64,000 bases of DNA from Alphaproteobacteria bacterium (GCA_031549365.1 JAVBPX010000007.1:10502-74501); one strand, 5' to 3'. Counted from the stretch's first letter, positions 1-15,789 are shown. The notes: generated by a model from the sequence alone, not told the origin. Program-made: numbers and translations.

Positions 1-1071
1 CACAGTCGATCCTTCAACCGATTGCGGCGCCAAATACGAATCAACATATGACCCAACATTTGTCTGTTGCTGAATTTGAATTGATGTGGGCGTAATTGGA
101 TCCCCTGAAATACTCCATTCTGCAATACTGGTCAAAACTTGTAAATGCGTACCAGAAACAACCGTAACAACTTTTTGCTGTTGATGCGATAATAACATTA
201 ATGAAATCGCATCATCATCCAATCCGTTTCCTACATTAAAATTAAAATGATTCCCTGTTTTTGATAACCAAACACCACAAGGCACATCCCGCGTCCCGCC
301 AAAAACCAATCTATTTTGATGAAATGTAACGGACGACGGGAAACCACGGCGTGGTGAAAAAACGCCCTCCTGCCAATCTGGGAAAAATCCAGTCGGACAA
401 TCTTTCAGCGGCCGATTCTGGGAAACATCAATATACTCATCCGTAACAACGCGAATAATAAATTCCCCATCATAAAATCTTAAATGCGATCCAATATCAG
501 ATTGCTTAAAATGATTTTTCTCGGACACATATAAACGAACATGCCCCAATAATTCAGACGTCCCCAATTTTAATGAAACCCCCGAATTATCATCAAATTT
601 CGCGAATGGAATGCAGCGCATACTATCAACCAAATCAAAATAAATATTCGCAATTGAAAATTTTCCATCAGCATTTCGTTTTAAAACTTGCGGCATATAA
701 TCGGTATGAACAAAAATCATTTGGGAAAATCGTTGCGCTGATTGAATTTGGTTCAAATCCTTTTCATCCCAAATCGTATCCAGTTCGGCAATTTTAATAT
801 CATCATCGTAAATTGTTAATTTGCGATCTGTTAAAACACATAAATAATCCATATCATCACGGAATACGAATGAAAACAACCGCGCCTTTCCAACAATTTC
901 ATCAACCAAAACTGTCCCAGATCTACGACGAATACCCCCAGAAACCAAAACATCCATATTTTGTAATTTTGAAACACCATTGATAACATTTTTCAAATCG
1001 TTACGAACATGAGCAAATTTGCTAATTTCCCCAGACGAAAAATTAGATTGCGTTTTGATAAAACGTCCCAC
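1..1071 (-). CDS. Podophage tail tubular protein B-like (T7 gp12/P22 gp10-like); runs off the window start
   Basis: Not in the ORF track. GTG start at 1071 after SD AAGGAG. Manual translation of parts gives MGRFIKTQSNFSSGEIS and GFPSSVTFHQNRLVFGG...WLSKTG, typical tubular-B motifs. Follows the tubular-A gene. Confidence 0.8.
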   Translation of the reverse strand, partial: MGRFIKTQSNFSSGEISKFAHVRNDLKNVINGVSKLQNMDVLVSGGIRRRSGTVLVDEIVGKARLFSFVFRDDMDYLCVLTDRKLTIYDDDIKIAELDTIWDEKDLNQIQSAQRFSQMIFVHTDYMPQVLKRNADGKFSIANIYFDLVDSMRCIPFAKFDDNSGVSLKLGTSELLGHVRLYVSEKNHFKQSDIGSHLRFYDGEFIIRVVTDEYIDVSQNRPLKDCPTGFFPDWQEGVFSPRRGFPSSVTFHQNRLVFGGTRDVPCGVWLSKTGNHFNFNVGNGLDDDAISLMLLSHQQQKVVTVVSGTHLQVLTSIAEWSISGDPITPTSIQIQQQTNVGSYVDSYLAPQSVEGSTV

Positions 1072-1082
1072 ATTTAACTCCT

Positions 1083-1625
1083 TTAATACCTAACATCCAA
1101 TAACGAAAAATGAATTCCCCCATCTCTTGACACTTGGGAACTGTCTATAAATTTTGCCTGACGTAATTCGGCCTCGAACAAAGAAACCAGAGTCCGGTAT
1201 AAATTATAATTCTCGGTCAGAGGCAAACAAAATTCGCACGCCAACTTTAAAACAGCAATTGATTGAAAATATGGAGGATAGTCGGAAACATCGACTCGCC
1301 GAATATAATTCAAATTAATCGAAGATGTATTTGCAAAAATATTTGCACCCATAACTTCATAATTATTTGTTTCATCCACACTTATAATCCGCAAACAATC
1401 AGACGGGATTAAAAAACAATTTTTCCTATCCTCACCTGCAACAGGGATCAATCTTTTTGAAACTCTGGCAAAATTCCAAGGATGCATCGCCACCAAACCA
1501 TCAACAACGCCTGGAAATATTGCATGCGCCATAACGGCCGCAACCGATTCTTCCGACATGGAAACAATCGGTTTTTCACCAATTTTTAATAATGCTTGCG
1601 CGCATAAATCTATTTTGGTTAACAT
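1083..1625 (-). CDS. Podophage tail tubular protein A-like (T7 gp11-like)
   Basis: IDLCAQALLKIGE, HPWNFA and FLIPSDCLRI motifs; 180 aa; lies between the capsid and tubular-B genes. Confidence 0.8.
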   Translation of the reverse strand: MLTKIDLCAQALLKIGEKPIVSMSEESVAAVMAHAIFPGVVDGLVAMHPWNFARVSKRLIPVAGEDRKNCFLIPSDCLRIISVDETNNYEVMGANIFANTSSINLNYIRRVDVSDYPPYFQSIAVLKLACEFCLPLTENYNLYRTLVSLFEAELRQAKFIDSSQVSRDGGIHFSLLDVRY

Positions 1626-1715
1626 TTAAAAACCTCTCTATTAATAAGGGCAACCATAATGGCACCAAACAGCCCATCGCCAAATCGAACACTTGAATCA
1701 GCAATGGGCACAAAA

Positions 1716-1943
1716 TTATAACGCAACCGTTTTAACAACTTCATCCGTGCTTGTTACAACCAATATTCTAGTGGCATCAGTTCCGTTTGTTAAAATCATA
1801 TCGCCCTTGTTCATCAATCCAGAAACAGTATTAAAAAAACCATCGACCTGAATATTTGCAATCGCTTCACGACCGGCATAATGCCACAAAGTAAAGCCAT
1901 TTGCATATGCAATGACCGACAAACATTTATTTGAAAAAGACAT
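1716..1943 (-). CDS. Small phage-associated protein (possible capsid decoration protein)
   Basis: 75 aa with LSVIAYANGFTLWHY; SD AAGGAG; directly downstream of the capsid gene. Confidence 0.65.
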   Translation of the reverse strand: MSFSNKCLSVIAYANGFTLWHYAGREAIANIQVDGFFNTVSGLMNKGDMILTNGTDATRILVVTSTDEVVKTVAL

Positions 1944-2051
1944 AAATAACTCCTTATTTAATTATTAAAAATCCTATCGGTTCGATCTGAAATTCAATAT
2001 ATTATTTTCATTGCAATAATTTATAAAATCTGACCGAACCGGTAAAATTAA

Positions 2052-2873
2052 CTATTGTGCGTCTTCACATTTCAAACGAACAACACCAGATCCATCAACC
2101 ATAATGGCCCCTTGGGACATACTGTTTGATACGAAATGCGCTGCACGTTCACCATGCCAAGAAATATCGGATTTCACATCCTGACCACATGCATGACCAA
2201 TGGCCGAACGGTGATAAATGAAACAATCACGCTCATCTCCATTAATTGGTAACGCATTATGTAAAACCCAAATAATCCCCATCCATTTTTTGGACTCGGA
2301 TCCACTCAATAATGGATATTGATTTCCAACATATTCTGATGATACAAATTCATCCATGGACAATAATTGGTTCCATTGATTAACACCAACAACAGCAAAT
2401 CTCTGACCATCATCTGGCACATCATTTTGATTTAATTTTGCAATTGCGGATAAAATCAAATCCTTGGACAAACCGGTTGAATAATCCCCAACAAATGCGG
2501 TCGCAGAATTCATAGCATTAATAATTAATTCATCGGTTTTTCGACCCAACGCATACGCCCCAGCGGACGCAACAACACGACGTTCATCAACATTGGTTTT
2601 TAATTCATCCAATGCATCAACCCAATCCCCTGCATAAAAATCATTCAACAAACATTCAACTGGCTCATGATCCAAATTCATCACAGGCACCAACCCATGA
2701 CGCGATTTTGAACTGGCAATACCTTTGCCTACTTTTTGAAAAGTTGTGCTTGCGCCAACAACTCCATTTTTTGATCTAACCGTAGCACGCAATTTTGTAC
2801 CAATTTGTTGATACGCCAAATGCACATCGGCTTCGAACTGTTTAACAAACGCTTGGTCAATTGACAAAGACAT
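2052..2873 (-). CDS. Phage major capsid protein, podophage-like
   Basis: SIDQAFVKQFEADVHLAYQ...KLRATVR, AYALGRKTDELII and DVPDDGQRF motifs; SD AAGGAG. Confidence 0.85.
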   Translation of the reverse strand: MSLSIDQAFVKQFEADVHLAYQQIGTKLRATVRSKNGVVGASTTFQKVGKGIASSKSRHGLVPVMNLDHEPVECLLNDFYAGDWVDALDELKTNVDERRVVASAGAYALGRKTDELIINAMNSATAFVGDYSTGLSKDLILSAIAKLNQNDVPDDGQRFAVVGVNQWNQLLSMDEFVSSEYVGNQYPLLSGSESKKWMGIIWVLHNALPINGDERDCFIYHRSAIGHACGQDVKSDISWHGERAAHFVSNSMSQGAIMVDGSGVVRLKCEDAQ

Positions 2874-3026
2874 CTATAACTCCTTTATTAAATTAAAAAA
2901 CCGGGAATGAACCCCACTCCCGGCAAACACAAATACTCTCACAGTTGTACAGGAAATATTAAAAACCAAACGTCAAACAAATCACGATTTTCTGATAATT
3001 CGAAACCCTATAATTTATCTAAATTA

Positions 3027-3097
3027 ATATAAATATATTTATTTCTACATTTTATTTTTCAAATAAAATGCCCCAACAATCGTTGGGACAACAAATA
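3027..3097. repeat. Diverged ~70 bp direct repeat, copy 1 (copy 2 at ~3953-4025)
   Basis: ATATAAATAyATTTATTyCTACATTTT...AAATAAAATGCC..CAACA.TCGTTGGG is present on both sides of the GNAT gene. Confidence 0.7.
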
Positions 3098-3202
3098 ATC
3101 CAATATCAAAATTAATGTTATATTTTTAATAAAATCTCGCGCTGCAAAAATATACTTCTAAACACTCGGGCCCAACTGGGTTCCCCGAAAAACTCACTTA
3201 TT

Positions 3203-3790
3203 TTATTTGAATTCTTTTGCTAATTTTGAAAACAATGCCGAAGTTCTGAATCTATTTTCTTTTCTTACAAATACATCTTCGCGCAATTCGCCCTCAAATA
3301 CATAACCGCAACGGCTGGCTACTTTTTTGCTTTGTTCATTTTCCCTATCGCACCGTATAAAAATTCTATTCATTTTAAAATCATTAAACAGCTCTTTTTC
3401 CAGTGCCGAAATTGCATATTTGATAATCCCTTTGCCTGTCATATCTTTATCCAGCCAATATCCCAATCCACACAACCTGTCTTGCGTATTTATCTTGTGA
3501 ACATCAATCCATCCGCACATAGCGCCATCAAAAAAAATCCCAAACTCAAAATTTTTACAATCCTCCCAATCAGACTTTGCAGCATATAAAAACGCCAAAG
3601 AATCATTAACATCTTTTACAACATCGTCATTTGCCCACTGAACAAATGGCAACAGATGATGCCGATTTCTTTCCGTCATATTAAAAAGCAATCGCGCATT
3701 TTCCAAATCGGGTTCGACAAATCTCAATTCCAAACCTTTGACGTCCGTTGAAATTACTTTTGGAAACATCTTTAAATCAATAACATCCAT
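3203..3790 (-). CDS. RimJ/RimL-family GNAT N-acetyltransferase
   Basis: LGYWLDKDMTGKGI and NEQSKKVASRCGYVFEG motifs; likely ATG at 3790 with SD AAGGA. Confidence 0.85.
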   Translation of the reverse strand: MDVIDLKMFPKVISTDVKGLELRFVEPDLENARLLFNMTERNRHHLLPFVQWANDDVVKDVNDSLAFLYAAKSDWEDCKNFEFGIFFDGAMCGWIDVHKINTQDRLCGLGYWLDKDMTGKGIIKYAISALEKELFNDFKMNRIFIRCDRENEQSKKVASRCGYVFEGELREDVFVRKENRFRTSALFSKLAKEFK

Positions 3791-3952
3791 CAAAAATCCT
3801 TTTATATTTTGTACCAATCGCTTGAAGAATAGCATAAAATTTATATTTTTCAAACTATTAACATATGATTGGCAGAATTGAACTTCGTCTACTTGACGAC
3901 CCACCCACCAGAATTTTAACACAAGGAAAACTCAACGATGCAATCTCAACTA

Positions 3953-4025
3953 TATAAATACATTTATTCCTACATTTTTATTTACCAAAATAAAAATGCC
4001 ACAACACTCGTTGGGCAAAAAATAA
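3953..4025. repeat. Diverged ~70 bp direct repeat, copy 2
   Basis: Aligns by eye with 3027-3097. Confidence 0.7.
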
Positions 4026-4113
4026 AATATTTTAAAGGCTAAATACTCTCTTTCAAAAATCCCCGAACTTTTTTATTGTCCGGGGATCACTCTCTAACAA
4101 GAAATCAAAATTA

Positions 4114-4875
4114 TTACTTCTTGGCAAACATAAATGATAATTCACTATAAATTGCTCGGAACGAAGTAATTGTTAATGTCAAAATAAATGACACTATTGC
4201 GAAACGACGAACTGCAAACCAAACCATATCCCATGAAAACCAACATACTTGGTCCGATAAACAGTATTCCGACAAACTACGTCCAATTATATGCCCAGCA
4301 TCCAAATAATACAGAATTCCCGCTACAAATCCCAATCCCAAAGAAATCACAACGTTTTGTTTTAATTCCTTGGAAACTCTTGGACGACGTTTTTCTGTGT
4401 AATTTCCATAAACAAACAAAAATACACATGCAATAACAAACAAAAACATAGGAATAAAAAATTTCATAAACAACGAAATCCAAACAAAAAATTGGTCAAT
4501 TAAAAACAAATCTAATGAAAACACATCTGTGTATCTATAAACAGCAACCGCATTCATAACACCAAAATAAGTTGCAACAAATGCTGACACCATCATCCAA
4601 AATGCCATAAACCGTCTGGCACCAATATAACCCGCAATATTTGTAATTTCATGCCCAATATTGCTAACTGAATTTTGTGTTTCTTTTAACAACTTTTGCT
4701 CCGCAGCACCCTTTTTTTCAGGCACCACAGAATTTAAATCTTTTTCAACAGCTTCAACCACCTTAACAGGCTTAACAACTTTCTCCGCCTTAACTGATTT
4801 AACAGCCTTAATCTTTTTAACTTTTTTGACCTTAATTTCTCTTGCCAATGAAACTTTCTTTTTTGGTCTTGCCAT
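4114..4875 (-). CDS. Hypothetical membrane protein with Lys/Val-rich N-terminus
   Basis: Likely start MARPKKK after GAGGA; about 4 hydrophobic segments. Confidence 0.7.
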   Translation of the reverse strand: MARPKKKVSLAREIKVKKVKKIKAVKSVKAEKVVKPVKVVEAVEKDLNSVVPEKKGAAEQKLLKETQNSVSNIGHEITNIAGYIGARRFMAFWMMVSAFVATYFGVMNAVAVYRYTDVFSLDLFLIDQFFVWISLFMKFFIPMFLFVIACVFLFVYGNYTEKRRPRVSKELKQNVVISLGLGFVAGILYYLDAGHIIGRSLSEYCLSDQVCWFSWDMVWFAVRRFAIVSFILTLTITSFRAIYSELSFMFAKK

Positions 4876-4954
4876 AATCCAATCCTCTCTATTCTCTCGA
4901 ACTCTCCTAAACAAAAAACGGGTTCAACCAAATGGCCGAACCCGCACAACCATC

Positions 4955-5530
4955 TTATTTTTTCTTTGCTACTTTTTTAACAGCTGGTTTTTTGGCTGCT
5001 GGTTTTTTAACAGCAACTTTTTTTGCAACTGGTTTTTTCGCAGGGGCTTTTTTTGCCACTACTTTCTTAGCAACTGGTTTTTTTGCTGCTGGTTTTTTTG
5101 CAACTACTTTTTTAACAGCTGGTTTTTTGGCTGCTGGTTTTTTAACAGCAACTTTTTTTGCAACTGGTTTTTTCGCAGGGGCTTTTTTAACAGCAACTTT
5201 TTTTGCAACTGGCTTTTTTGCGGCTACAGGTTTTTTTGCAACAGCTTTTTTAACAGCCAATTTTGCAACTTTTTTTGCAACTGGTTTTTTCGCAGGAGCT
5301 TTTTTAACAGCAACTTTTTTGGCCACTGGTTTCTTAGCAACTGGTTTTTTAACAGCTACAACTTTTTTTGCAACTGGTTTCTTAGCGGCTGGTTTTTTCG
5401 CAGCTACTTTTTTAACAGCTGGTTTTTTAACAGCTGGTTTTTTTGCAGCAGCTTTAACAGCAGGTTTCGCAGCTACTTTTTTTGCAGCTGGTTTTTTCCC
5501 TTCGCTAAAGAACTTTGATAATACGGACAT
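4955..5530 (-). CDS. Histone H1-like Lys/Ala/Pro/Val-rich nucleoid protein (HctB/BpH1-like)
   Basis: Pentapeptide repeats [15 protein letters not shown] over about 180 aa; SD-like AAGGA upstream. Confidence 0.8.
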
Positions 5531-5649
5531 TCCTTTCTCCTTCCTTATTTATCTCAGATCATTTTTTAATGATCTTAAAACAATTGTAATGGATCTGGAA
5601 ATTTTAGTAAAGCACTTTTTAATAAATTCTAAAAAATAATTTCAAAAAA

Positions 5650-6306
5650 TTACGAATATAATTTTTTAAAACCCGATTCAATTTTTTTTACATACTCTTG
5701 ATCGTGTTCTCTCCAATATTTTGGATCACGCATCATCGTTCGTAAATCATTTTCATTTAATGATGAATCAAAATTTTCACCAGTTGAAATTTTTGGCTCA
5801 ACCGATTGCATCATATTGTATAACGCTTGTATTCCCTTGGCGCTGGAACACATTGTATTCATAACATCTTCCGGCAAAAACTTTTCGCCCCACGCTTGAA
5901 TTGATTCACATGATGAAATCATTTTATCTTTTGAACCAAAAATTTTTTCTAATTCACTTAATTCTTCCAACTCGGATCGAATTTGAAAAATATTATCCAA
6001 CTCTGGTTTTAAAATTTCATCCGCCAACAAATAAATCTGTTCAACTTGATTTTTATTCAAACCAATTTTTTTAAACGTATTTCGAATCGAATCATTATTT
6101 TCAAACATCGGATGTATCGGATATTCTGAAACATCATCCGGCACACCAATTGCTTTGAAAAACTTCTGACGACATTCATCATCCATATCATTATTTGGGA
6201 TTGAAATCATCCCACCCATCTTTTTTTCCAACGCCAAATATGAATTCATCAATGAATCCACATTCAACTCACCATTTTCATTTTTAAATTTTTCTGGAAT
6301 ATCCAT
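5650..6306 (-). CDS. Phage capsid assembly scaffolding protein (T7 gp9-like)
   Basis: N-terminal IPEKF...SYLALEKK and C-terminal LRTMMRDPKYW...GFKKLY; acidic; SD GGAGG. Confidence 0.7.
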   Translation of the reverse strand: MDIPEKFKNENGELNVDSLMNSYLALEKKMGGMISIPNNDMDDECRQKFFKAIGVPDDVSEYPIHPMFENNDSIRNTFKKIGLNKNQVEQIYLLADEILKPELDNIFQIRSELEELSELEKIFGSKDKMISSCESIQAWGEKFLPEDVMNTMCSSAKGIQALYNMMQSVEPKISTGENFDSSLNENDLRTMMRDPKYWREHDQEYVKKIESGFKKLYS

Positions 6307-6469
6307 AACCCCTCCACAGTAAAAGTATTACCCACTTAATGAACGAACTAAAATAACGTCAAAATGGGATGAGTATAAAGAATTCCAAAAATTTTAGGGC
6401 CGCGATGTACATAGTGGTACATAAGGTTCTAAAATTTTTGGAACTTGTTTTTAATCGCCCATTTTCACG

Positions 6470-6658
6470 TTATTTTGCAATACTGGAACGCAGAAAAAAT
6501 ATCCCAGCCAACGGAAACACCGTCTGCAATAAATCAATCAAACCTAAATCTCCGACAAAAAACGCACCGATTGCGGAAATAATTCCAACCCCGGTTGTAA
6601 TATATGTCTTTTTACCTTTAAATAACCCACCATTAATAATGCTTAAAATTGTATTCAT
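6470..6658 (-). CDS. Small holin-like membrane protein
   Basis: 62 aa; LFKGKKTYI followed by two hydrophobic segments; SD AAGGAG; next to a cell-wall hydrolase. Confidence 0.55.
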   Translation of the reverse strand: MNTILSIINGGLFKGKKTYITTGVGIISAIGAFFVGDLGLIDLLQTVFPLAGIFFLRSSIAK

Positions 6659-6783
6659 AATAACTCCTTATATATAATGTCTAAAACACACCAACCTTTG
6701 ACTCTAAAAAAATACCCGTACCAACAAAAGTATTTCAAAATCAATCAAAACGTACTAGTTGGCTTCGCTTTTCATTGATTTTT

Positions 6784-7239
6784 CTATAAATAAAATAACA
6801 AATTCCCAACTTCATAAATATACCCCAACGCTCTGGCCCAATCCGGATCCATATCATTTCGATGAAACCGAACCGCTGAAAATATATTATTTGAAATTTG
6901 TCCTAACATCATCCGCCGAATTGTTCTTAAACAAACCAAAAATTCTTCATCAGTGTTATCAACAAACAAATACGAATGATGATTCGATTCCCGATCTAAC
7001 GATTCAAATAGTGCCGCATCCTCACCAATTGCTTCAAAAGATTGTCCCAACAATTTATGTCGATTTAAAATCATAGCAGCCAATGCTTCCTTAACCGCTA
7101 AATCTTCACCACTTGTTTCCGCATACATTACTCGGGCCAATTTATATTGAATCCTCTTTTCATCATCATAATTTTCAATAATTGTAAAAATCGGCTTTGA
7201 AATTTGTGAAACCATTTCTGTTTTTAAAACAACATTCAT
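6784..7239 (-). CDS. Cell wall hydrolase, SleB/Hydrolase_2-like (endolysin candidate)
   Basis: LARVMYAETSGE...AAMILNR and AVRFH...PDWA...VGNLLFY motifs. Confidence 0.7.
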   Translation of the reverse strand: MNVVLKTEMVSQISKPIFTIIENYDDEKRIQYKLARVMYAETSGEDLAVKEALAAMILNRHKLLGQSFEAIGEDAALFESLDRESNHHSYLFVDNTDEEFLVCLRTIRRMMLGQISNNIFSAVRFHRNDMDPDWARALGYIYEVGNLLFYL

Positions 7240-7523
7240 AAATTGTCTCCTCTCTCTAATTTTTTTTCAATCCTCAACAAATGATCCGTCAACCTAGTTT
7301 CCAAATCCTTCATAGCGGACATACTTGCGTAATTCCTTGCAACATCTAATTTATAATCAGCCAAATCTTTGCGAATTGCATCTACATGAAACGCATAATT
7401 CTCGCGTAAACGTTCAACCAAATGTTCGACTGCCGAAATCTGATTTCGAATCCATAAAAAAAAGCCCCCGATCAAGGGAACTTCTACAACCTGTATCCAC
7501 CAGGCCAAATCCATATTCTCCAT
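7236..7523 (-). CDS. Phage-associated membrane-anchored coiled-coil protein
   Basis: N-terminal hydrophobic segment, then LADYKLDVARNYAS...LLRIEKKL; 4-bp overlap with the hydrolase gene. Confidence 0.6.
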   Translation of the reverse strand: MENMDLAWWIQVVEVPLIGGFFLWIRNQISAVEHLVERLRENYAFHVDAIRKDLADYKLDVARNYASMSAMKDLETRLTDHLLRIEKKLERGDNL

Positions 7524-7571: not shown

Positions 7572-7742
7572 TTTGCAATTATTAAAAAAGTATAAAAAAA
7601 TCGGCCCAGGGCCGATCAAATACACTTCTACTGTTAATGGAAACATAGTACCACATTTCAACCTGAAAGTCAAGACATTTTTTAATAGACAACACGCAAT
7701 TTTCGTTTTATCCTACATCGCTTAAACATGAAAGGCTTAAAA

Positions 7743-9587
7743 ATGAAGATCCGCAATATCGCAATTATCGCACACGTTGACCACGGCAAAACAACCTTGG
7801 TTGATAATATGTTAAAACAATCCGGCACATTCCGCGAAAACGAAAAGGTTGCTGAACGCATGATGGATTCGGGCGACATTGAACGCGAACGCGGCATTAC
7901 AATCAGTGCGAAACCAACATCCATTATATGGAATGATTATAAAATTAATATTATCGACACACCTGGGCACGCAGACTTTGGCGGCGAAGTAGAACGAATT
8001 TTATCAATGGTTGATGGCGTTGTATTATTGGTCGACAGTGCCGAAGGCCCAATGCCACAAACAAAATTCGTACTGGGCAAGGCTTTAAAACTGGACCTCC
8101 ACCCGATTGTTGTGATTAATAAAATCGACCGAAACGATCAACGCGCGGACGAAGTATTAACCGAAGTATTCGACCTGTTCGACAAAATGGGCGCGACAAA
8201 TTCTCAATTGGACTTTCCACATTTATATGCTGTCGGCCGCGAAGGCTGGGCCATCCGTAATCTAAACGATGAACGCAAAGATTTAACACCATTATTTAAC
8301 ATGATCATTGATCACGTACCTGCCCCTGACTGTATTGCGGGCCGTTGCGAATTAAACGCACCATTTAAAATGTTGGCAACCACATTGGAATCAGATCCAT
8401 ATGTTGGACGAATCTTGACTGGTAAAATTGAATCTGGAACGGTAAAAATCAACCAACCAGTACATGCAATTGATATGAACGGCAACATTGTTGAACGTGC
8501 CAAGGTTACAAAAATCATTGAACATCGCGGCATGCAAAAGGTTACCCTGGAATCCGCCAACGCCGGCGACATCGTTGTAATCGCTGGATTTACCAAAGCT
8601 ACTGTTTCTGATACACTATGTGATACAACTGTAACCGAACCGATTCCTGCATTACCAATTGATCCTCCAACACTGTCGATGACATTTTCTGTGAATACAT
8701 CACCCTTGGCTGGGCGCAGTGGCGGGAAAAAATTAACATCTCGCATGATCGGCGACCGTTTATTCAAAGAAGCCGAAACAAACATTGCATTAAAGGTCAA
8801 CGTCAGTGAGAGCAACGAATCATTCGAAGTATCTGGCCGTGGCGAATTACAATTGGGAATTTTAATTGAAACAATGCGCCGCGAAGGATTCGAATTATCC
8901 GTATCCCGCCCACGTGTTATGTTCAAATACGATGAAAACGGCGCACGCCTTGAACCAATCGAAGACGTTGTAATTGATGTCGACGAAGAATACTCTGGCG
9001 TTGTTGTTGAAAAATTATCAAAACGTCGTGCAACTCTGTTGGAAATGAAACCATCGGGATCTGGAAAACTACGTTTAATTTTCTCGGCACCATCCCGTGG
9101 ATTAATCGGATACTTATCCGAATTCCGCACAGACACACGCGGATCAGGAATCATGAACCGAGTATTTAATGGTTACGAACCATACCGTGGCGACATTGAA
9201 CATTACCGTAACGGCGTATTGGTATCCATGGAAACCGGCATGGCCGTAACATACGCACTATATAATTTGGAATCACGCGGAACCTTGTTTGTTGAACACG
9301 GGACATCGGTATATTCAGGTATGATTATCGGCGAAAATGCCAAAGACAATGATTTGGAAGTAAACCCAATCAAAGGCAAAGAATTAACCAACATGCGCGC
9401 ATCTGGATCCGATGAAAAACAATTCTTGGCTCCTCCTCGCCGCATGTCATTGGAAGAATCACTTTCATACATCTTGGACGATGAATTGGTCGAAGTAACT
9501 CCAGACGTAATCCGCCTCCGCAAAAAAGAATTGGATTCGGTCATTCGCAAAAAGAACCTCGGCCGTAAAAACAAAATCGGAGAATAA
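7743..9587 (+). CDS. typA: Translational GTPase TypA/BipA
   Basis: [31 protein letters not shown] and [18 protein letters not shown] motifs. Confidence 0.97.
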
Positions 9588-12300: not shown

Positions 12301-12473
12301 AACAACTCCTTTTGAATTGACGACATTATATCAAAACCACCCCCATTAATCCAAGACAATAAAACACCCGCCTAAATAGAAACAGCATTTTAAAAAAATT
12401 CGATATAAAATTACAAAATCTTCAAATTAAGAAAACAAAACTGTTGAAAACATTGCTAAACCCCAAAGCTATG

Positions 12474-12902
12474 CTAACGGGCGCGACACAAAGTTTTTTC
12501 AATTATTGCGACAATACTTTTAAAATCTTTTGATTCAATATTTACATTTGGTAAATTTGCAGGTTTATACATTCCAGATTTTTTCATAAATAATGCTAAA
12601 TTATTTTCAATAAAAATCGGTCCACCAATCGTTCCAACAGGATAAACCTCAATTATATTATCAAACGGGGATTGTTCCCCAAAAGAGGTTGTCATCAACC
12701 AAGAATGCTCAAAACCCGGCATATAATACCCTGTTTCAACCCTTAAATTGTATATTTTCGCAACCGCATGACAGATTTCATGGCACGAAATCAAATGATC
12801 CTCAGGCAGATTAAATTTATCCACAGAATCAAGAACCCTCTTGATACTTTTAAAAATATCAAGCTCTTGTTGTTTTACAATATATTCTGTACGTGTTTTC
12901 AT
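12474..12902 (-). CDS. Hypothetical protein
   Basis: Open frame with SCHEICHA and GFEHSWL; start uncertain. Confidence 0.55.
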   Translation of the reverse strand: MKTRTEYIVKQQELDIFKSIKRVLDSVDKFNLPEDHLISCHEICHAVAKIYNLRVETGYYMPGFEHSWLMTTSFGEQSPFDNIIEVYPVGTIGGPIFIENNLALFMKKSGMYKPANLPNVNIESKDFKSIVAIIEKTLCRAR

Positions 12903-13080
12903 TACAAAGACAATCTTATTATAATTATTATGATATTCAAGAAAAATAAAACCCAACCCAAAACAAATAGATCTCGGTAAAATCATATATTAATTGCGCC
13001 CAAACAATTATAATTTGATACAAATGCCCATTTATGATAAAATACACCACATAACCATTTATACACACAGGAATATAATC

Positions 13081-15789
13081 ATGCAGAAAATTTTAACATC
13101 CATGGCGATATTGATTCTGACTGCACCAACGTTACAATCTGCAACTATTACTATCGATTCTTCTAATTCTCCTTATACTTCTGACATAACTGCGGGCAAC
13201 ATTGGCAACATTAATGCCACGGGTTCAACCTCTGGAATATCCGTTACCGGCACCGGCACAGCCGCCGCAACCCAAGGCTTGGCAAACAACGTCGGCGGCA
13301 CGATGAACAACACGACGATTTATGGCACTGGAACTGGCGCAAACCAGGGTTTTGTTGTTAACTCTGGCGGCGGCACTATGAACAACACAACCATTACTTT
13401 CGGCGGCCAACTGACTGCCAAGGCAAGGTCTATTATTGACGGTGGATCATTAAATACCGGCGGCACATTGGTTTTTGACAATACATCAAACAGTGCGATC
13501 AATCGTTCAACTTTGCGCAATTTTACAATTGCTGACGGCACAATCACTACAAATGCGGCCAATTATTATAATTTTGAAAATTTACTTATAACAAAAACTG
13601 CCAAAACAACCATCTTGAATACAAACATTATCGGCAATAACATCCAGGTAATAAATAATTCCGCAACGCATTCTGACGATAATAACTACAGGCTGGAAAT
13701 GTCAACCGCTGGCGCACTAGAAGCAGATGGCTTGTTGTTACACAGCGCACGCATTAATAACGCCACCAGATTTGCATTAACAAATGTTACAGTTGATCAA
13801 AACGATCAAAATGCCCGCGCATCGCTTCTTATCAGCGGAACAACAAAAATTAATACGCTTGAAAATTTGACTATTATGGCGAACGATTTCTACCCTGTTG
13901 GCACATACAATATTGATTTTCTGATGTCCGGGATTACCGGATCCACATTAACAAACGCGAATGTAACTGGGGCCAGCATCAGATTCATTGCTCAAAACGA
14001 TGTTGTGTTGACCGGCCTTAATTTTGACGCCCAGGAATCAAAAATACAATTCAAAAACAATACTGTTGTGTCAAATTCCACTTTTGTTATTTTCAATTCC
14101 ACATCTGGCGAAAGATTCGACTTGAACGACAACGCAACTCTTCGCGATTCCAGCATTTCTGGCACCGGGGAATTATGGGCCAATTCAAATTCAAAAGTTT
14201 TAAACACCGAACTGTCCGGAATCAGATTCCAACTTAACGGTTCGACATCAATTGCCCAAGGAATTACATTTAACAATGGAGCATCTGTTTATTTTGGCAC
14301 TGTCGGATCAGTATTAAAAGACGTAACTGTAAATTCCGGATCTTTTGTTGAACTGGCAAATGCCGCCAATTCTTTAACTGGCACAAATGTTTTTAACTCG
14401 GGCAGTTATTTAAACATCATTTCAAACGTCACCACCAATTATCTTTTAACCGACTCTGGATCTTCATTGGAATTGAATGGTGCAAAAATATTTATAACAG
14501 CAGGTACGACATATCAGCACAACATCAGAAATGTAACAATAAACAACCTGTCGGGAAATGGAACTTTGGATCTTGCCATTTCTGGGGCAAATTCAGATCA
14601 GATTGATTTAAAATATATAATGCAAGGAAATCTTTCTGGCGATTATGTTTTTACTTACTCCGGCGACCTTGCCAGCAACTTGCTTAATGCAGACATTCTG
14701 GACGTATCCGGCGCCACCGTTTCAAATGCAACTTTTTCATTTTTTGACACAGTAAATGGTTATCAATATTTATTACGCGAAAATCCCAATTCACCAGGAG
14801 TATTCCAAATTTATCAGGCAGGCATCGCGGATTCAGTTTACAATGTTGCCGCCATGCGTTCAGCATTGTTGGCGTACACACGCAGCTTGAATAACGCATT
14901 GCACAAACGCAGCGGCGAAATCCAAGAAATGGTGCATAACATAAAATCCGATGAAAACGACAATCACAAGCATTATCATTCGTCAAAACGCAATTCACTG
15001 TGGGCACGTCCTGTGGCCGGGATTGGCAATGTTTCAGACAATCAGAATACAGACATACAGTTCTATGGATTCGAATTGGGATATGATCATGATATATGGT
15101 CCGGAAAAACATTCGATATTTTCCTAGGCGGGCTGTATGGTTATAACAATGGAAAATTTGATTTTGACCAACACTTTGACTTTAACACTGCGTCGGCTAA
15201 AATTGATACTCAATACACAGGCATATATTTAACATATTTATCAGACAATGGTTTTTATGTCGACACCACAGTACGTTATTATTGGTTTGATTATGATATG
15301 ACCAATACATCACCTTCTGTTGATACAATGGAAACTGGTAAAACCGACGCTGTTTCCGCCAGCCTAGAAGCCGGGAAACAAATATCGCTTGGCATATTCG
15401 GGAACAAGGAATATTTCATTCAACCACGCACAGAATTAACGTTCACAAAAATAAACGCAGAATCCGGATTGAATGCAATTATTGATACGACGAAATCGCT
15501 GGTTGGCGACCTTGGACTTATGATTGGCTGGCGCGATTTTGGTTACAACGAAAATGTTTTTGAACCATACCTTTGGCTTGGTTACAAATATGAATTCATG
15601 GGCAAGACAGACGTAACAAACAGCGGCATACAAATGATCAGCGATCTAAACGGTGGCGCTCTGAATACAGGGATTGGAATTACAGCTCAACTATCGAACA
15701 GCATACGAATTTACGGCCACATAAACTATGATTATTCTTCTGAATACGACATGCTAAACGGCAGCATCGGATTACGTTACCAGTTCTAA
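13081..15789 (+). CDS. Autotransporter (type Va) with beta-helical passenger
   Basis: Signal peptide MQKILTSMAILILTAPTLQSA; Asn/Thr/Gly-rich passenger with repeated GGTMNNTTI; C-terminal barrel ending IGLRYQF. Confidence 0.9.
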   Translation: MQKILTSMAILILTAPTLQSATITIDSSNSPYTSDITAGNIGNINATGSTSGISVTGTGTAAATQGLANNVGGTMNNTTIYGTGTGANQGFVVNSGGGTMNNTTITFGGQLTAKARSIIDGGSLNTGGTLVFDNTSNSAINRSTLRNFTIADGTITTNAANYYNFENLLITKTAKTTILNTNIIGNNIQVINNSATHSDDNNYRLEMSTAGALEADGLLLHSARINNATRFALTNVTVDQNDQNARASLLISGTTKINTLENLTIMANDFYPVGTYNIDFLMSGITGSTLTNANVTGASIRFIAQNDVVLTGLNFDAQESKIQFKNNTVVSNSTFVIFNSTSGERFDLNDNATLRDSSISGTGELWANSNSKVLNTELSGIRFQLNGSTSIAQGITFNNGASVYFGTVGSVLKDVTVNSGSFVELANAANSLTGTNVFNSGSYLNIISNVTTNYLLTDSGSSLELNGAKIFITAGTTYQHNIRNVTINNLSGNGTLDLAISGANSDQIDLKYIMQGNLSGDYVFTYSGDLASNLLNADILDVSGATVSNATFSFFDTVNGYQYLLRENPNSPGVFQIYQAGIADSVYNVAAMRSALLAYTRSLNNALHKRSGEIQEMVHNIKSDENDNHKHYHSSKRNSLWARPVAGIGNVSDNQNTDIQFYGFELGYDHDIWSGKTFDIFLGGLYGYNNGKFDFDQHFDFNTASAKIDTQYTGIYLTYLSDNGFYVDTTVRYYWFDYDMTNTSPSVDTMETGKTDAVSASLEAGKQISLGIFGNKEYFIQPRTELTFTKINAESGLNAIIDTTKSLVGDLGLMIGWRDFGYNENVFEPYLWLGYKYEFMGKTDVTNSGIQMISDLNGGALNTGIGITAQLSNSIRIYGHINYDYSSEYDMLNGSIGLRYQF

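Follow-up and report, generated by a model that had tools for sequence, protein, structure and literature searches.

Podophage genes lie at one end of a long stretch of DNA from a gut bacterium of the order Rs-D84 / Candidatus Enterousia, interleaved with genes of host type. Are they a prophage, or a particle system that the host has domesticated? The stretch analysed (the window, 64,000 nucleotides) comes from a 0.91-Mb genome (G000), and the podophage genes at its positions 1-7523 all read from the minus strand and show neither stops nor frameshifts (Table 1). The initial annotation had listed co-oriented, intact genes for tubular B, tubular A, a small protein, capsid, scaffold, a holin-like protein, a hydrolase and membrane proteins, and all of these are present. 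Its impression of mostly strong SD sites agrees with the SD-like motifs that we observed upstream of 13 of the 18 system genes examined. The cluster also ends beside typA as described, with no integrase, att site, portal or replication gene in the window. The proposed span holds at this right end but not at the left, where the cluster runs 3.7 kb further.

Table 1. Features of the cluster region, with positions counted from the first letter of the window.
Feature	Position	Strand	Evidence and remarks
Nozzle/tubular protein B (gp12-like)	1..1071	-	phrog_376 1.2e-63 (window part); C-terminal 357 aa of 578-aa gene
Tail adaptor/tubular protein A (gp11-like), 180 aa	1083..1625	-	phrog_394 9.5e-38
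Conserved 75-aa protein (p75)	1716..1943	-	phrog_18004 1.5e-10
Major capsid protein, 273 aa	2052..2873	-	PF19821 7.2e-71
Two terminator-like hairpins, GNAT-capsid gap	3090-3069 and 2924-2900 (L001 13591-13570, 13425-13401)	-	pattern scan
GNAT acetyltransferase (RimJ/RimL type)	3203..3922	-	PF13302 1.8e-16; likely start M45, window 3790
266-aa membrane protein (p266), Lys-rich N-terminus, several TM segments	4114..4914	-	likely start M, window 4875
Terminator-like hairpin after H1-like gene	4945-4918	-	pattern scan
Histone-H1-like Lys/Ala/Pro-repeat protein (Hc2-like), 191 aa	4955..5530	-	PF07382 6.8e-34
Scaffolding protein (T7 gp9-like), 218 aa	5650..6306	-	PF05396 1e-11
Holin-like protein, 62 aa, two TM	6470..6658	-	tblastn
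Cell-wall hydrolase (SleB/Hydrolase_2-like), 151 aa	6784..7239	-	phrog_938 endolysin 1.7e-7
95-aa protein (p95), one N-terminal TM + coiled coil	7236..7523	-	phrog_29007 6.2e-23
typA/bipA, host gene bounding cluster, outside system	7728..9587	+	Pfam GTP_EFTU, BipA_C

The nozzle and adaptor genes were recovered in 101 of 101 related loci. In G000 the nozzle gene starts left of the window (G000:C8:11572); its full 578 aa match phrog_376 at 5.9e-94 and PF25675 Phage_nozzle at 28 bits (cut-off 27), while the adaptor scores 21.3 bits against PF17212, slightly below the cut-off of 22.3. The p75 gene always follows the capsid gene and occurs in 97/101 loci (dN/dS 0.19), and the scaffold gene is found in 87/101 (dN/dS 0.25). 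At the other end, the cluster opens with p95, whose stop overlaps the start of the hydrolase gene, which is present in 68/101 loci (dN/dS 0.34). The hydrolase matches PF07486 weakly in G000 (E 0.004) and at 3.2e-20 in outgroup orthologues, and is the probable endolysin. Among outgroup loci in which both genes were detected, p95 and the hydrolase are paired in most (35-46% identity), and p95 is predicted to be a lysis accessory of the spanin or holin type. A tblastn search placed the holin-like ORF in 61 of 101 related loci, on the capsid strand in all 61 and within the hydrolase-scaffold gap in 57; a 102-aa ORF on the plus strand was rejected as a gene, being a shadow of this 62-aa ORF. Together the holin-like, hydrolase and p95 genes make up a three-gene lysis cassette. 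None of the 100 other loci has typA adjoining the cluster.

Left of the window, the contig encodes a 150-aa protein (p150), a 191-aa fibre stub, a split TerL and a pilin-like gene, beyond which follow a tRNA-Ser (~420 bp past the left end of the cluster) and genes for a DEAD-box helicase, Skp/OmpH, LpxD and FabZ. The gene set also includes a Bbp19-like protein. A search for dispersed portal and terminase genes located the portal (PF12236, 338 bits) on contig C4, with the rest of the system on C8; at least ~11 kb of host genes separate the two, giving at least two loci in the genome. TerL consists of two genes in G000, of 203 aa and ~272 aa, that lie 426 bp apart. Its N half aligns to T7 gp19 residues 29-210 (E 1.4e-26) and carries GKS and DDVE, the C-half profile matches gp19 258-483, and all 15 sequences share the C-half residues D96, E161, D238, D239 and D242. 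The Walker A/B motifs and nuclease acidic residues that the T7 gp19 type has in a single polypeptide are intact but spread over two genes, and the halves are separate in 15 of the 15 Rs-D84 loci where both were found. The PF12236 portal, the PF05396 scaffold and the gp11- and gp12-like tail proteins identify a module of T7/HTVC010P type, the canonical gene order of which is seen in the outgroups.

The gp14 family matched p150 below threshold in four of ten orthologues (E 0.0044-0.9), not including G000's own protein, and the gp14 assignment of p150 is an Atlas lead at 0.93. With ORFs of Pelagibacter phage Hodr as queries, no homologue of gp15 or gp16 was found. A small terminase was likewise not found, and the ~100-aa ORFs ahead of TerL in two outgroup loci (L170 and L171) have no homologue in G000. 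Compared with the outgroup tailspikes of 708-771 aa, the fibre is reduced to a stub of 191 aa, and a receptor-binding domain was not found.

We looked for a complete prophage continuing to the left and found host genes instead, with no integrase and no replication module. A search for att repeats at the nearby tRNA-Ser found none, tyrosine recombinases occur in G000 only on contigs C14 and C15, and Pfam searches of 122 ORFs from five relatives' loci and of 108 ORFs from five outgroup loci returned no integrase, polymerase or primase. The marks of a prophage (integrase, att repeats, a replication/lysogeny module and a patchy strain-level distribution) were not observed. As expected of a GTA, the chromosomal cluster has phage genes for structure, packaging and lysis and none for integration or replication.

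The capsid gene is carried by 46 of 61 relatives and, across the order, by 213 of the 227 genomes with a completeness of 90% or more; it occurs in 20 of 21 genera. This is not the patchy presence that would have spoken against vertical inheritance. The orthologues are mostly single-copy and intact, with no internal stop in nearly all matches listed, in genomes that are strongly reduced (0.7-1.1 Mb). Fourteen of the 227 lack the capsid gene, and the portal is also absent in all five of these tested; hosts can therefore do without the system. Each copy is single and has host genes around it, on long contigs and on closed chromosomes, and identity falls with host kinship. The tree built from capsid, tubB, tubA and terL_N agrees with the typA tree (18 genomes): in each, families f1 and f3 are recovered, the branching within f3 is identical, G013 and G024 are sisters and G000 is basal. 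For nine cluster proteins, pairwise distances are correlated with those of typA (Pearson 0.65-0.94), and capsid conservation is similar to that of typA (71-81% vs 79-81% identity within a family).

Inheritance with the host lineage is accompanied by purifying selection, again as in a GTA. Median dN/dS for 12 cluster genes lies at 0.07-0.34 (terL_N 0.071, portal 0.087, capsid 0.108, the other nine 0.11-0.34), compared with 0.041 for host dnaB and 0.052 for priA, values that come from NG86 on divergent sequences and from pairs that are not independent. Tail and lysis genes reach 5-8 times the dnaB value, and relaxed selection, which would have spoken against the initial reading, was not found. 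At otherwise invariant columns of seven proteins, G000 has two private changes in total (0-1 per protein), with none at the 96 invariant columns of the capsid; the G000 copy shows no decay.

Scaffold and capsid genes are indeed separated in G000 by H1-like, membrane-protein and GNAT genes, as the initial annotation had noted. The GNAT gene is an insert specific to G000, absent from all 100 other loci, and in 14 of 30 relatives the sole homologues are weak (23-38%) and lie at other places in the genome. In two other genera (G012 and G039), homologues of p266 immediately precede the capsid gene. A K-rich ORF occupies the scaffold-capsid slot in 66 of 87 loci, only in f1 and f3 among loci of known family, and in no outgroup locus. 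In f1 and f3 the H1-like gene is fixed in this slot, and its product probably serves to condense DNA, either in producer cells or within the head. Terminator-like hairpins, which are consensus matches only, interrupt the G000 cluster; the second of those in the GNAT-capsid gap ends 27 nt ahead of the capsid ATG. In one metatranscriptome run, from the study to which the probable source sample also belongs, we found contigs identical to the window over p75, capsid, p266 and typA; as assembled contigs they give neither strand nor level. Cover is very uneven in the RNA run and even, at about 31, in the DNA run.

The nearest isolate among HTVC010P-type/T7-like podophages is Pelagibacter phage EXVC031P Hodr (OQ414635.1), with the same order of portal, small protein, scaffold, capsid, small protein, tubular A and tubular B. 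Its capsid is 44.5% and its portal 29.9% identical to those of G000, the scaffold, tubular A and B and hydrolase are homologous as well, and the remaining Hodr ORFs have no match in the G000 cluster. Hodr differs in its replication and early genes, its large internal virion proteins and its terminase in one piece, and the G000 genes evolve with the host tree. The same T7-like module occurs in Micavibrio, Geminicoccaceae and Rhodospirillaceae MAGs, which belong to other alphaproteobacterial orders, and of 200 genomes sampled from the class, 33 have orthologous capsids (41-69% identity). These outgroup loci share the core genes and keep the canonical order, portal first and lysis last. They differ from the Rs-D84 copies in having no H1-like gene, a TerL in one ORF of 487-526 aa (4/4 loci checked) and, in two of five loci each, a 708-771-aa tailspike, an S24 repressor-like gene and a GTA_holin_3TM gene. 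Capsid distance tracks typA distance among the outgroups too (Pearson 0.65; 0 of 2000 permutations as high). The system is conserved at the level of the order, and probably more widely.

No description of this system was found in the literature searched. RcGTA/CcGTA-type elements (Rhodogtaviriformidae) resemble it in having head, tail, packaging and lysis genes of phage origin and no integration or replication functions, in vertical inheritance under purifying selection in alphaproteobacterial hosts, and in genes that may lie in several loci. RcGTA delivers DNA to the recipient periplasm, and import is finished by ComEC and DprA. Both proteins are present in the 0.91-Mb genome, and by analogy the present system is likely to depend on them in the same way. 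The two have unrelated origins: RcGTA is of siphovirus type and its capsid belongs to the HK97 family (PF05065), which has no match in G000 and was detected in the control genomes, including Caulobacter, so that G000 does not fall within the RcGTA type. The module described here is T7/HTVC010P-like (PF12236 portal, PF05396 scaffold, PF19821 capsid, gp11/gp12 tail), has a two-gene terminase and an H1-like gene in its head module, and is known from its genes. Reduced forms of the RcGTA type are described as persisting in very small genomes (George et al. 2022, PMC9254644).

Of published systems, FpGTA of Faecalibacterium prausnitzii comes closest. As described by Borodovich et al. (2026, PMC12946183), it is likewise an element of a gut bacterium with podovirus-type structural genes, no replication genes, two loci and a near-ubiquitous presence in its host group, a likeness by description. 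Its host is a Gram-positive Firmicute, whereas ours belongs to the Alphaproteobacteria. According to the same text, FpGTA has a TerS candidate and baseplate, fibre and RBP genes, and its particles, ~8.5-9 kb of packaged DNA and proteome have been demonstrated, whereas the present system is described from its genes.

Trees, dN/dS and flanks support the initial reading of a vertically inherited, fragmented, podophage-derived set rather than a prophage; the particle itself we infer. Our favoured interpretation, which we hold to be reasonably probable, is that the module is a domesticated, GTA-like morphogenesis set of a T7/HTVC010P-type podovirus that has been chromosomal since before Rs-D84 diversified. 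Since structural, packaging and lysis genes are kept in a set unable to make virus, it is probably a device for packaging and releasing the cell's own DNA. The genes would be switched on in some cells, and a prohead would be built from scaffold, capsid and portal. The two terminase halves may join as one motor that fills the head with cellular DNA by headful, after which adaptor, nozzle and fibre stubs would close it and the holin-like protein, hydrolase and p95 would lyse the cell. With gp15, gp16 and a receptor-binding fibre domain missing and only a gp14-like candidate left, we infer that the DNA would reach the recipient periplasm and go no further; the retained ComEC and DprA would complete import. 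Counting against this interpretation are the small terminase, gp15, gp16 and receptor-binding domain that our searches did not find, the below-threshold gp14 match, the faster evolution of tail and lysis genes, the absence of the capsid gene from 14 of 227 genomes and the hairpins that interrupt the G000 cluster.

An active element would be a temperate podophage or phage satellite common in the order, with its other genes elsewhere or supplied by a helper. Hodr, with its 44.5% capsid identity and the same portal-to-nozzle order, and a 5-kb 'Bacteriophage sp.' record at 66% identity fit such a phage. We nevertheless give it almost no credence: the copies are single, among host genes and diverge along with their hosts, no integrase, excisionase, replication gene or att repeat was found, host dnaB or the portal lies within the split terminase, and one genome holds the parts at different loci. 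Neither does it seem at all likely that these genes are the functionless, decaying remnant of a defective prophage, captured once or often and persisting by chance. Such a remnant would account for the restriction to structural and lysis genes, the rearranged state of G000, where the portal is on a different contig and scaffold and capsid are parted by foreign genes, the tRNA-Ser close to the left end and the loss of the system from some genomes. It sits poorly with retention of the capsid in 213 of 227 reduced genomes, nearly all listed matches being free of internal stops, with dN/dS of 0.07-0.34, invariant catalytic residues and a tree congruent with typA, and with the lack of excess private changes in G000.

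Conservation and selection would be equally expected if the domesticated particle had a function other than gene transfer, its heads, filled with DNA or empty, leaving the cell at lysis to serve as a phage decoy, in DNA export or protection, or as a protein vehicle, a PBSX-like case in which DNA goes undelivered. The missing recognition and injection parts (a fibre stub only, gp15 and gp16 not found) suit this reading, and the authors of the FpGTA study leave the same question for their element (PMC12946183). Terminase ATPase and nuclease residues, portal, nozzle and adaptor are all kept, however, and selection therefore acts on a tailed particle that is closed and filled with DNA; ComEC and DprA are also retained in a very small genome. 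A short non-contractile tail is not known to have a killing action, which also counts against this reading, and on balance we regard a non-transfer role as unlikely.

Returning to the GTA-like interpretation, we tentatively suggest that this may be a second ancient alphaproteobacterial GTA lineage, unrelated to RcGTA, derived from a podovirus, inherited vertically across many orders and minimal in Rs-D84, where it would hand DNA to the periplasm for ComEC. If so, the Rs-D84 particle would be a streamlined one, its fibre reduced to a stub and its ejectosome to a gp14-like outer-membrane piece. Its terminase would act as two separate polypeptides, and an H1-like DNA condenser would have been recruited into the head module. 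Host DNA would be handed to the periplasm of sister cells and imported by ComEC.

Every gene that the initial annotation had listed for the cluster was recovered, all on the minus strand and uninterrupted, in the source genome G000 (911,163 bp in 15 contigs, 97.6% complete). The Shine-Dalgarno sites it had reported were borne out as well: SD-like motifs precede 13 of the 18 system genes examined. We rejected a plus-strand 102-aa ORF (window 6369-6677) as a gene, since it is the shadow of the conserved 62-aa holin-like gene that overlaps it on the minus strand; the latter is the real one because its tblastn matches, present in 61 of 101 related loci, all lie on the capsid strand.

Features of the G000 system in transcription order, with median dN/dS among relatives (L001, locus on contig C8; contig coordinate = window coordinate + 10,501)
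Feature	Location	Strand	Identification	Median dN/dS
typA	window 7728-9587	opposite to cluster	host gene bounding the cluster	
p95	window 7236-7523	-	single-TM/coiled-coil; phrog_29007, 6.2e-23; first in transcription order; stop overlaps hydrolase start	
Hydrolase	window 6784-7239	-	151 aa; Hydrolase_2, E 0.004; phrog_938 endolysin, 1.7e-7	0.338
Holin-like	window 6470-6658	-	62 aa, two TM	
Scaffold	window 5650-6306	-	PF05396, 1e-11	0.251
H1-like	window 4955-5530	-	191 aa, Lys/Ala/Pro repeats; PF07382, 6.8e-34	
Membrane protein	window 4114-4914	-	lysine-rich N-terminus	
GNAT	window 3203-3922	-	PF13302, 1.8e-16	
Capsid	window 2052-2873	-	PF19821, 7.2e-71	0.108 (527 pairs)
p75	window 1716-1943	-	75 aa; phrog_18004	0.189
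Tubular A (tubA, gp11-like)	window 1083-1625	-	phrog_394, 9.5e-38	0.257
Tubular B (tubB, gp12-like)	runs off window at base 1; remainder first to the left	-	phrog_376; full gene 578 aa, 5.9e-94	0.244
p150	left of window, after tubular B		150 aa	0.237
Fibre stub	left of window		191 aa; first 106 residues = T7-type fibre N-terminal domain	0.111
Terminase ATPase (terL_N)	left of window		203 aa; phrog_38, 1.9e-39; followed by 426-bp gap	0.071
RNA-like unit in gap	L001:7715-7930		promoter-to-terminator-like, ~160-180 nt	
Terminase nuclease (terL_C)	left of window		294-aa ORF, probable start residue 23; phrog_38, 7.6e-36; PF22530, 1.4e-8	0.170
Pilin-like	L001:6302-6823		173 aa, type-IVb-pilin-like; after terminase nuclease gene	
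tRNA-Ser(GCT)	L001:5791-5879		host side, left end	
DEAD-box helicase, Skp/OmpH, 360-aa ORF, LpxD, FabZ	left of window		host side, left end	
Portal	G000:C4:4225-5625		intact 466-aa frame; PF12236, 338 bits	0.087
Bbp19-like	C4, after portal		69 aa	0.210
Acidic protein	C4, 5' of portal		441 aa	
GH108 protein	C4, 5' of portal		PG_binding_3 domain	
Host dnaB			comparison	0.041
Host priA			comparison	0.052

A prophage continuing to the left of the window had been named beforehand as speaking against domestication. We did not find one: the 10.5 kb of C8 to the left hold no integrase, repressor, excisionase or replication gene, and the rest of the particle genes there give way to host genes. The three tyrosine-recombinase matches in the genome are located on contigs C14 and C15, and a blastn-short search with the tRNA-Ser as a potential attachment site against the whole genome returned no partial copy near the cluster. 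The same holds for relatives, where no integrase, polymerase or primase was found by Pfam among 122 ORFs of five loci, and their host flanks differ each time (e.g. miaA/priA, mlaC/transketolase, carbonic anhydrase, macAB-tolC, lpxI). None of the G000 flanking genes occurs in the 100 other loci, making its position unique among the loci compared; these unique flanks carry no weight for or against vertical descent.

The initial annotation had also proposed looking for a dispersed portal gene, and a family search of the whole assembly located a single T7-type portal on contig C4, with a UDG-like gene, clpB and serS as neighbors. With the portal and the Bbp19-like gene on C4 and the rest on C8, the G000 system occupies at least two loci. 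The tRNA-Ser gene is located ~420 bp past the pilin-like gene, at the position that portal and Bbp19 would take in relatives; it possibly marks where the chromosome broke in the rearrangement by which the portal came to C4. The two genes 5' of the portal, encoding the acidic protein and the GH108 protein, were rejected as core parts (present in 0/100 and 1/100 other loci, respectively).

The capsid gene is widespread in the order. Matches occur in 46 of 61 relatives from six families, usually as a single copy (two copies in 2/61) and nearly all without internal stops. Among Rs-D84 genomes at least 90% complete, 213 of 227 have a match (211/224 high-quality genomes; 20/21 genera), counts that are not independent since 184 of these genomes belong to one genus. 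The portal family is missing as well from all five capsid-less genomes searched, one of them a single 0.7-Mb contig; loss of the whole system therefore happens. We used tblastn to profile 101 loci (G000, 20 fetched relatives and 80 from a public scan, some cut by contig ends) and found capsid, tubA and tubB in all 101, p75 in 97, terL_N in 94, scaffold in 87, terL_C in 82, portal in 78, p150 in 71, hydrolase in 68, Bbp19 in 60 and the fibre stub in 48.

To compare gene and host trees, we set concatenated capsid, tubB, tubA and terL_N proteins against typA for 18 genomes. Both trees recover families f1 (support 100/96) and f3 (100/100), as expected for the vertical inheritance that had been proposed. 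The topology within f3 is identical (G047 and G053 sisters, G052 next), and G013 and G024 form a sister pair in both trees; the cluster tree pairs G058 with G059 as sisters, a relationship that the typA tree leaves unresolved. Within f1, G000 and G004 branch off first in the cluster tree; the typA tree places them outside a clade formed by the remaining seven f1 genomes. Family labels require no more than the minimum of four changes on either tree. For nine cluster genes, protein distances between pairs of genomes correlate with the typA distances (Pearson 0.65-0.94). Relative to G000, capsids are 71-81% identical within the family and 62-72% identical beyond it, compared to 79-81% and 67-76% for typA.

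Relaxed selection, also named beforehand as speaking against domestication, is not seen. Median dN/dS of the cluster genes ranges from 0.071 to 0.338 (NG86; non-independent pairs with 0.1 < dS < 1.2, after dropping rows with internal stops or less than 80% coverage). Because G000 is too diverged for unsaturated dS, we scored the changes private to it at positions that do not vary among the other genomes: there are none in capsid, tubA, terL_C, scaffold and portal, and one each in tubB and terL_N. The rearranged G000 copy is thus without sign of decay.

The large terminase is encoded by two separate genes. The ATPase half aligns to residues 29-210 of T7 gp19 (PDB 8dgc_E, E 1.4e-26) and keeps its Walker A (GKS) and Walker B (DDVE) motifs. 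The nuclease half alone has no match among PDB sequences, and a 15-sequence profile was needed to match it to gp19 residues 258-483 (E 8e-4). In that alignment D96, E161, D238, D239 and D242 (numbered from the probable start) are invariant, which we take to be the RNase-H-like active site. The spacing between the halves varies: they are 175-430 bp apart in G000 and families f2, f4 and f5, most f1 loci carry host dnaB and other genes between them (dnaB lies within the locus in 65/101), and the portal sits between them in f3. The G000 gap has no dnaB. The halves are separate in all 15 Rs-D84 loci having both, whereas TerL in other alphaproteobacterial orders is one ORF of 487-526 aa (4/4 checked, frames agree), which argues that the split is old, fixed and under selection. 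The two halves would reassemble into one enzyme.

The gap between the terminase halves in G000 holds a unit that opens with the region's best sigma-70-like site (TTGACA, 16 nt, TG-TATATT; 11 of 12) and ends in a strong terminator hairpin. The core of this unit recurs with 75-100% conservation in the loci of at least 46 relatives, located ~3.7-3.9 kb upstream of the capsid gene in the opposite orientation. A 12-copy alignment contains two stem-loops with invariant C/U-rich loops followed by the terminator, with compensatory changes in 9 of 35 pairs. The element has no match in Rfam and is a candidate anti-Shine-Dalgarno-type small RNA. On the far side of the nuclease gene, the pilin-like gene keeps its place in loci of four families. 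Its Pfam matches (Bundlin, PilS, N_methyl) are all below cut-off, its Atlas scores are 0.96-0.97 with PilS clusters, and a 25% identical paralogue lies at G000:C14:109530-110003.

Five loci from other alphaproteobacterial orders, serving as outgroup, carry the same module in canonical order: portal, Bbp19, scaffold, capsid, p75, tubA, tubB, a ~170-aa protein, tailspike, a ~100-aa ORF (2/5 loci), TerL, p95 and hydrolase. The five contain neither an integrase nor a replication gene; an S24 repressor-like gene lies upstream in two, and two carry a GTA_holin_3TM gene. The tailspike, seen in 2/5 loci, is a protein of 708-771 aa with a pectate-lyase-like domain, and the G000 fibre protein matches only the first ~106 residues of these tailspikes (28%, 2.7e-16). 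p150 is homologous to the ~170-aa protein (44% over 43 aa, 1.7e-4) and adjoins T7_gp14 clusters in a language-model look-up (score 0.93); Pfam T7_gp14 gives below-threshold matches in 4/10 p150 orthologues (E 0.0044-0.9) and none in G000's own. For the large internal virion proteins, the large ORFs of Hodr (Pelagibacter phage EXVC031P, the nearest isolated phage) found no match in G000. We considered the ~100-aa ORFs 5' of TerL in two outgroup loci (L170, L171) as small terminase and rejected them; they have no G000 homologue, and no small terminase was identified.

Two side observations concern these comparisons. In two of the five outgroup loci the module ends with a match to GTA_holin_3TM (PF11351, 'holin for gene-transfer release'; E 2e-12 to 5e-13), at L171:18758-19291 and L176:963-1901, which connects the podovirus-type module with a family of holins that takes its name from RcGTA-type systems. 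Small early-region ORFs of Hodr have homologues elsewhere in G000 at C6:20787-21023 and C4:29373-29633 (42% at 1e-13; 32% at 7e-10), probably host-like genes also carried by the phage.

Of 87 loci, 66 have a lysine-rich ORF, encoded on the cluster strand, in the space between scaffold and capsid, which in outgroup loci is often just 62-141 nt. Among loci of known family this ORF occurs only in f1 and f3, and it is present in no outgroup locus. The G000 H1-like gene is the longest copy seen and is followed by a terminator-like hairpin. In two other genera (G012, G039), the gene immediately upstream of capsid encodes a homologue of the membrane protein, so this protein is a recurrent tenant of that slot. 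The GNAT gene holds this position in G000 only (0/100 other loci), and the homologues that 14 of 30 relatives carry elsewhere in their genomes are no more than 23-38% identical. In G004 the slot (L017:7793-9328) contains a DUF5131 gene preceded by a 256-aa ORF without Pfam match, and both occur together at G000:C14:148211-149753. This slot seems to receive small cargo cassettes.

To place the module in the class, we searched 201 genomes drawn evenly across it and found a capsid match in 44 (E <= 1e-10). Without G000, 33 of the remaining 200 match at 41-69% identity, 32 in single copy and one with two, at genome sizes of 0.9-6.5 Mb. Over 22 genomes from 21 families, capsid and typA distances correlate (Pearson 0.65, 231 pairs; 0/2000 label permutations as high) and have similar means (0.39 and 0.35). 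terL_N and tubB behave likewise, and the portal correlation is weaker (0.42; 158/2000). This pattern fits one old domestication, without proving it.

To our knowledge, gene transfer agents (GTAs) come from few independent domestications, and all well-studied alphaproteobacterial ones are siphovirus-like. No HK97-type capsid (PF05065) was matched in G000, with control genomes matching; the T7-like module is therefore its only particle system of the GTA kind. A domesticated T7-like module is not described for Enterousia (a group within Rs-D84), Rs-D84 or other Alphaproteobacteria in the full-text literature searched, which leaves most subscription journals outside. In a study reporting Rs-D84 genomes of mostly < 1 Mb (PMC12306168), the terms phage, capsid, terminase and gene transfer each occur zero times. 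The only podovirus-like GTA found in print is FpGTA from Faecalibacterium, in Firmicutes (2026, PMC12946183).

Within one study, of an invertebrate gut metagenome, the stretch was found in one DNA run, which may be the source of the assembly, and in one metatranscriptome run. Contigs from the RNA run match without mismatches over p75 (C8:12151-12434), capsid (12451-12903) and the membrane protein (14619-15299), as well as over typA, ompH and the DEAD helicase. This is one run of assembled contigs, which show neither strand nor level. Its cover is very uneven across 20 kb whereas that of the DNA run is even at ~31, which argues against simple DNA carry-over. RNA run X2 lacks contigs across the terminase and pilin region, and X3 covers almost none of the stretch, which is not evidence of silence. 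In the H1-like bin (window 4955-5530), summed metatranscriptome contig depth reaches 732 versus 4-10 in its neighbors and ~20 in the DNA run, only a hint of high expression, as contig depths cannot rank genes (and are not so used here) and repeats attract contigs of other organisms.

Together, these data support the initial reading of a vertically inherited podophage-derived particle system rather than a prophage. Portal, scaffold, capsid, short tail, packaging ATPase and nuclease, and a lysis set are intact, selected and vertically inherited, and the system lacks any means of self-replication or integration. It is a real and probably functional podovirus-derived GTA-like system. In producer cells, heads would be built and filled with cellular DNA by a headful mechanism, then sealed by the gp11/gp12 tail together with the fibre stubs, after which the cells would lyse. 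T7 gp14 is the outer-membrane part of the ejection channel, with gp15 and gp16 forming its periplasmic and inner-membrane part, and RcGTA leaves its DNA in the periplasm, from which import is ComEC-dependent. G000 keeps ComEC (738-aa frame) and DprA; by analogy, these genes and a gp14-like protein retained alone would fit periplasmic delivery. More speculatively, the pilin-like gene after terL_C could be part of the uptake side, and the hairpins before the capsid gene could provide control by read-through, as is reportedly the case for CcGTA, judging by the title of one paper (PMC11150451).

If true, very reduced uncultured gut and rumen bacteria (0.7-1.1 Mb) would spend ~1.3% of their genome on a DNA-packaging particle, which would bear on how such lineages escape mutational decay. 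The system would also offer natural examples of a two-polypeptide terminase and of a minimal podovirus particle that lacks both fibres and an inner-membrane tunnel.
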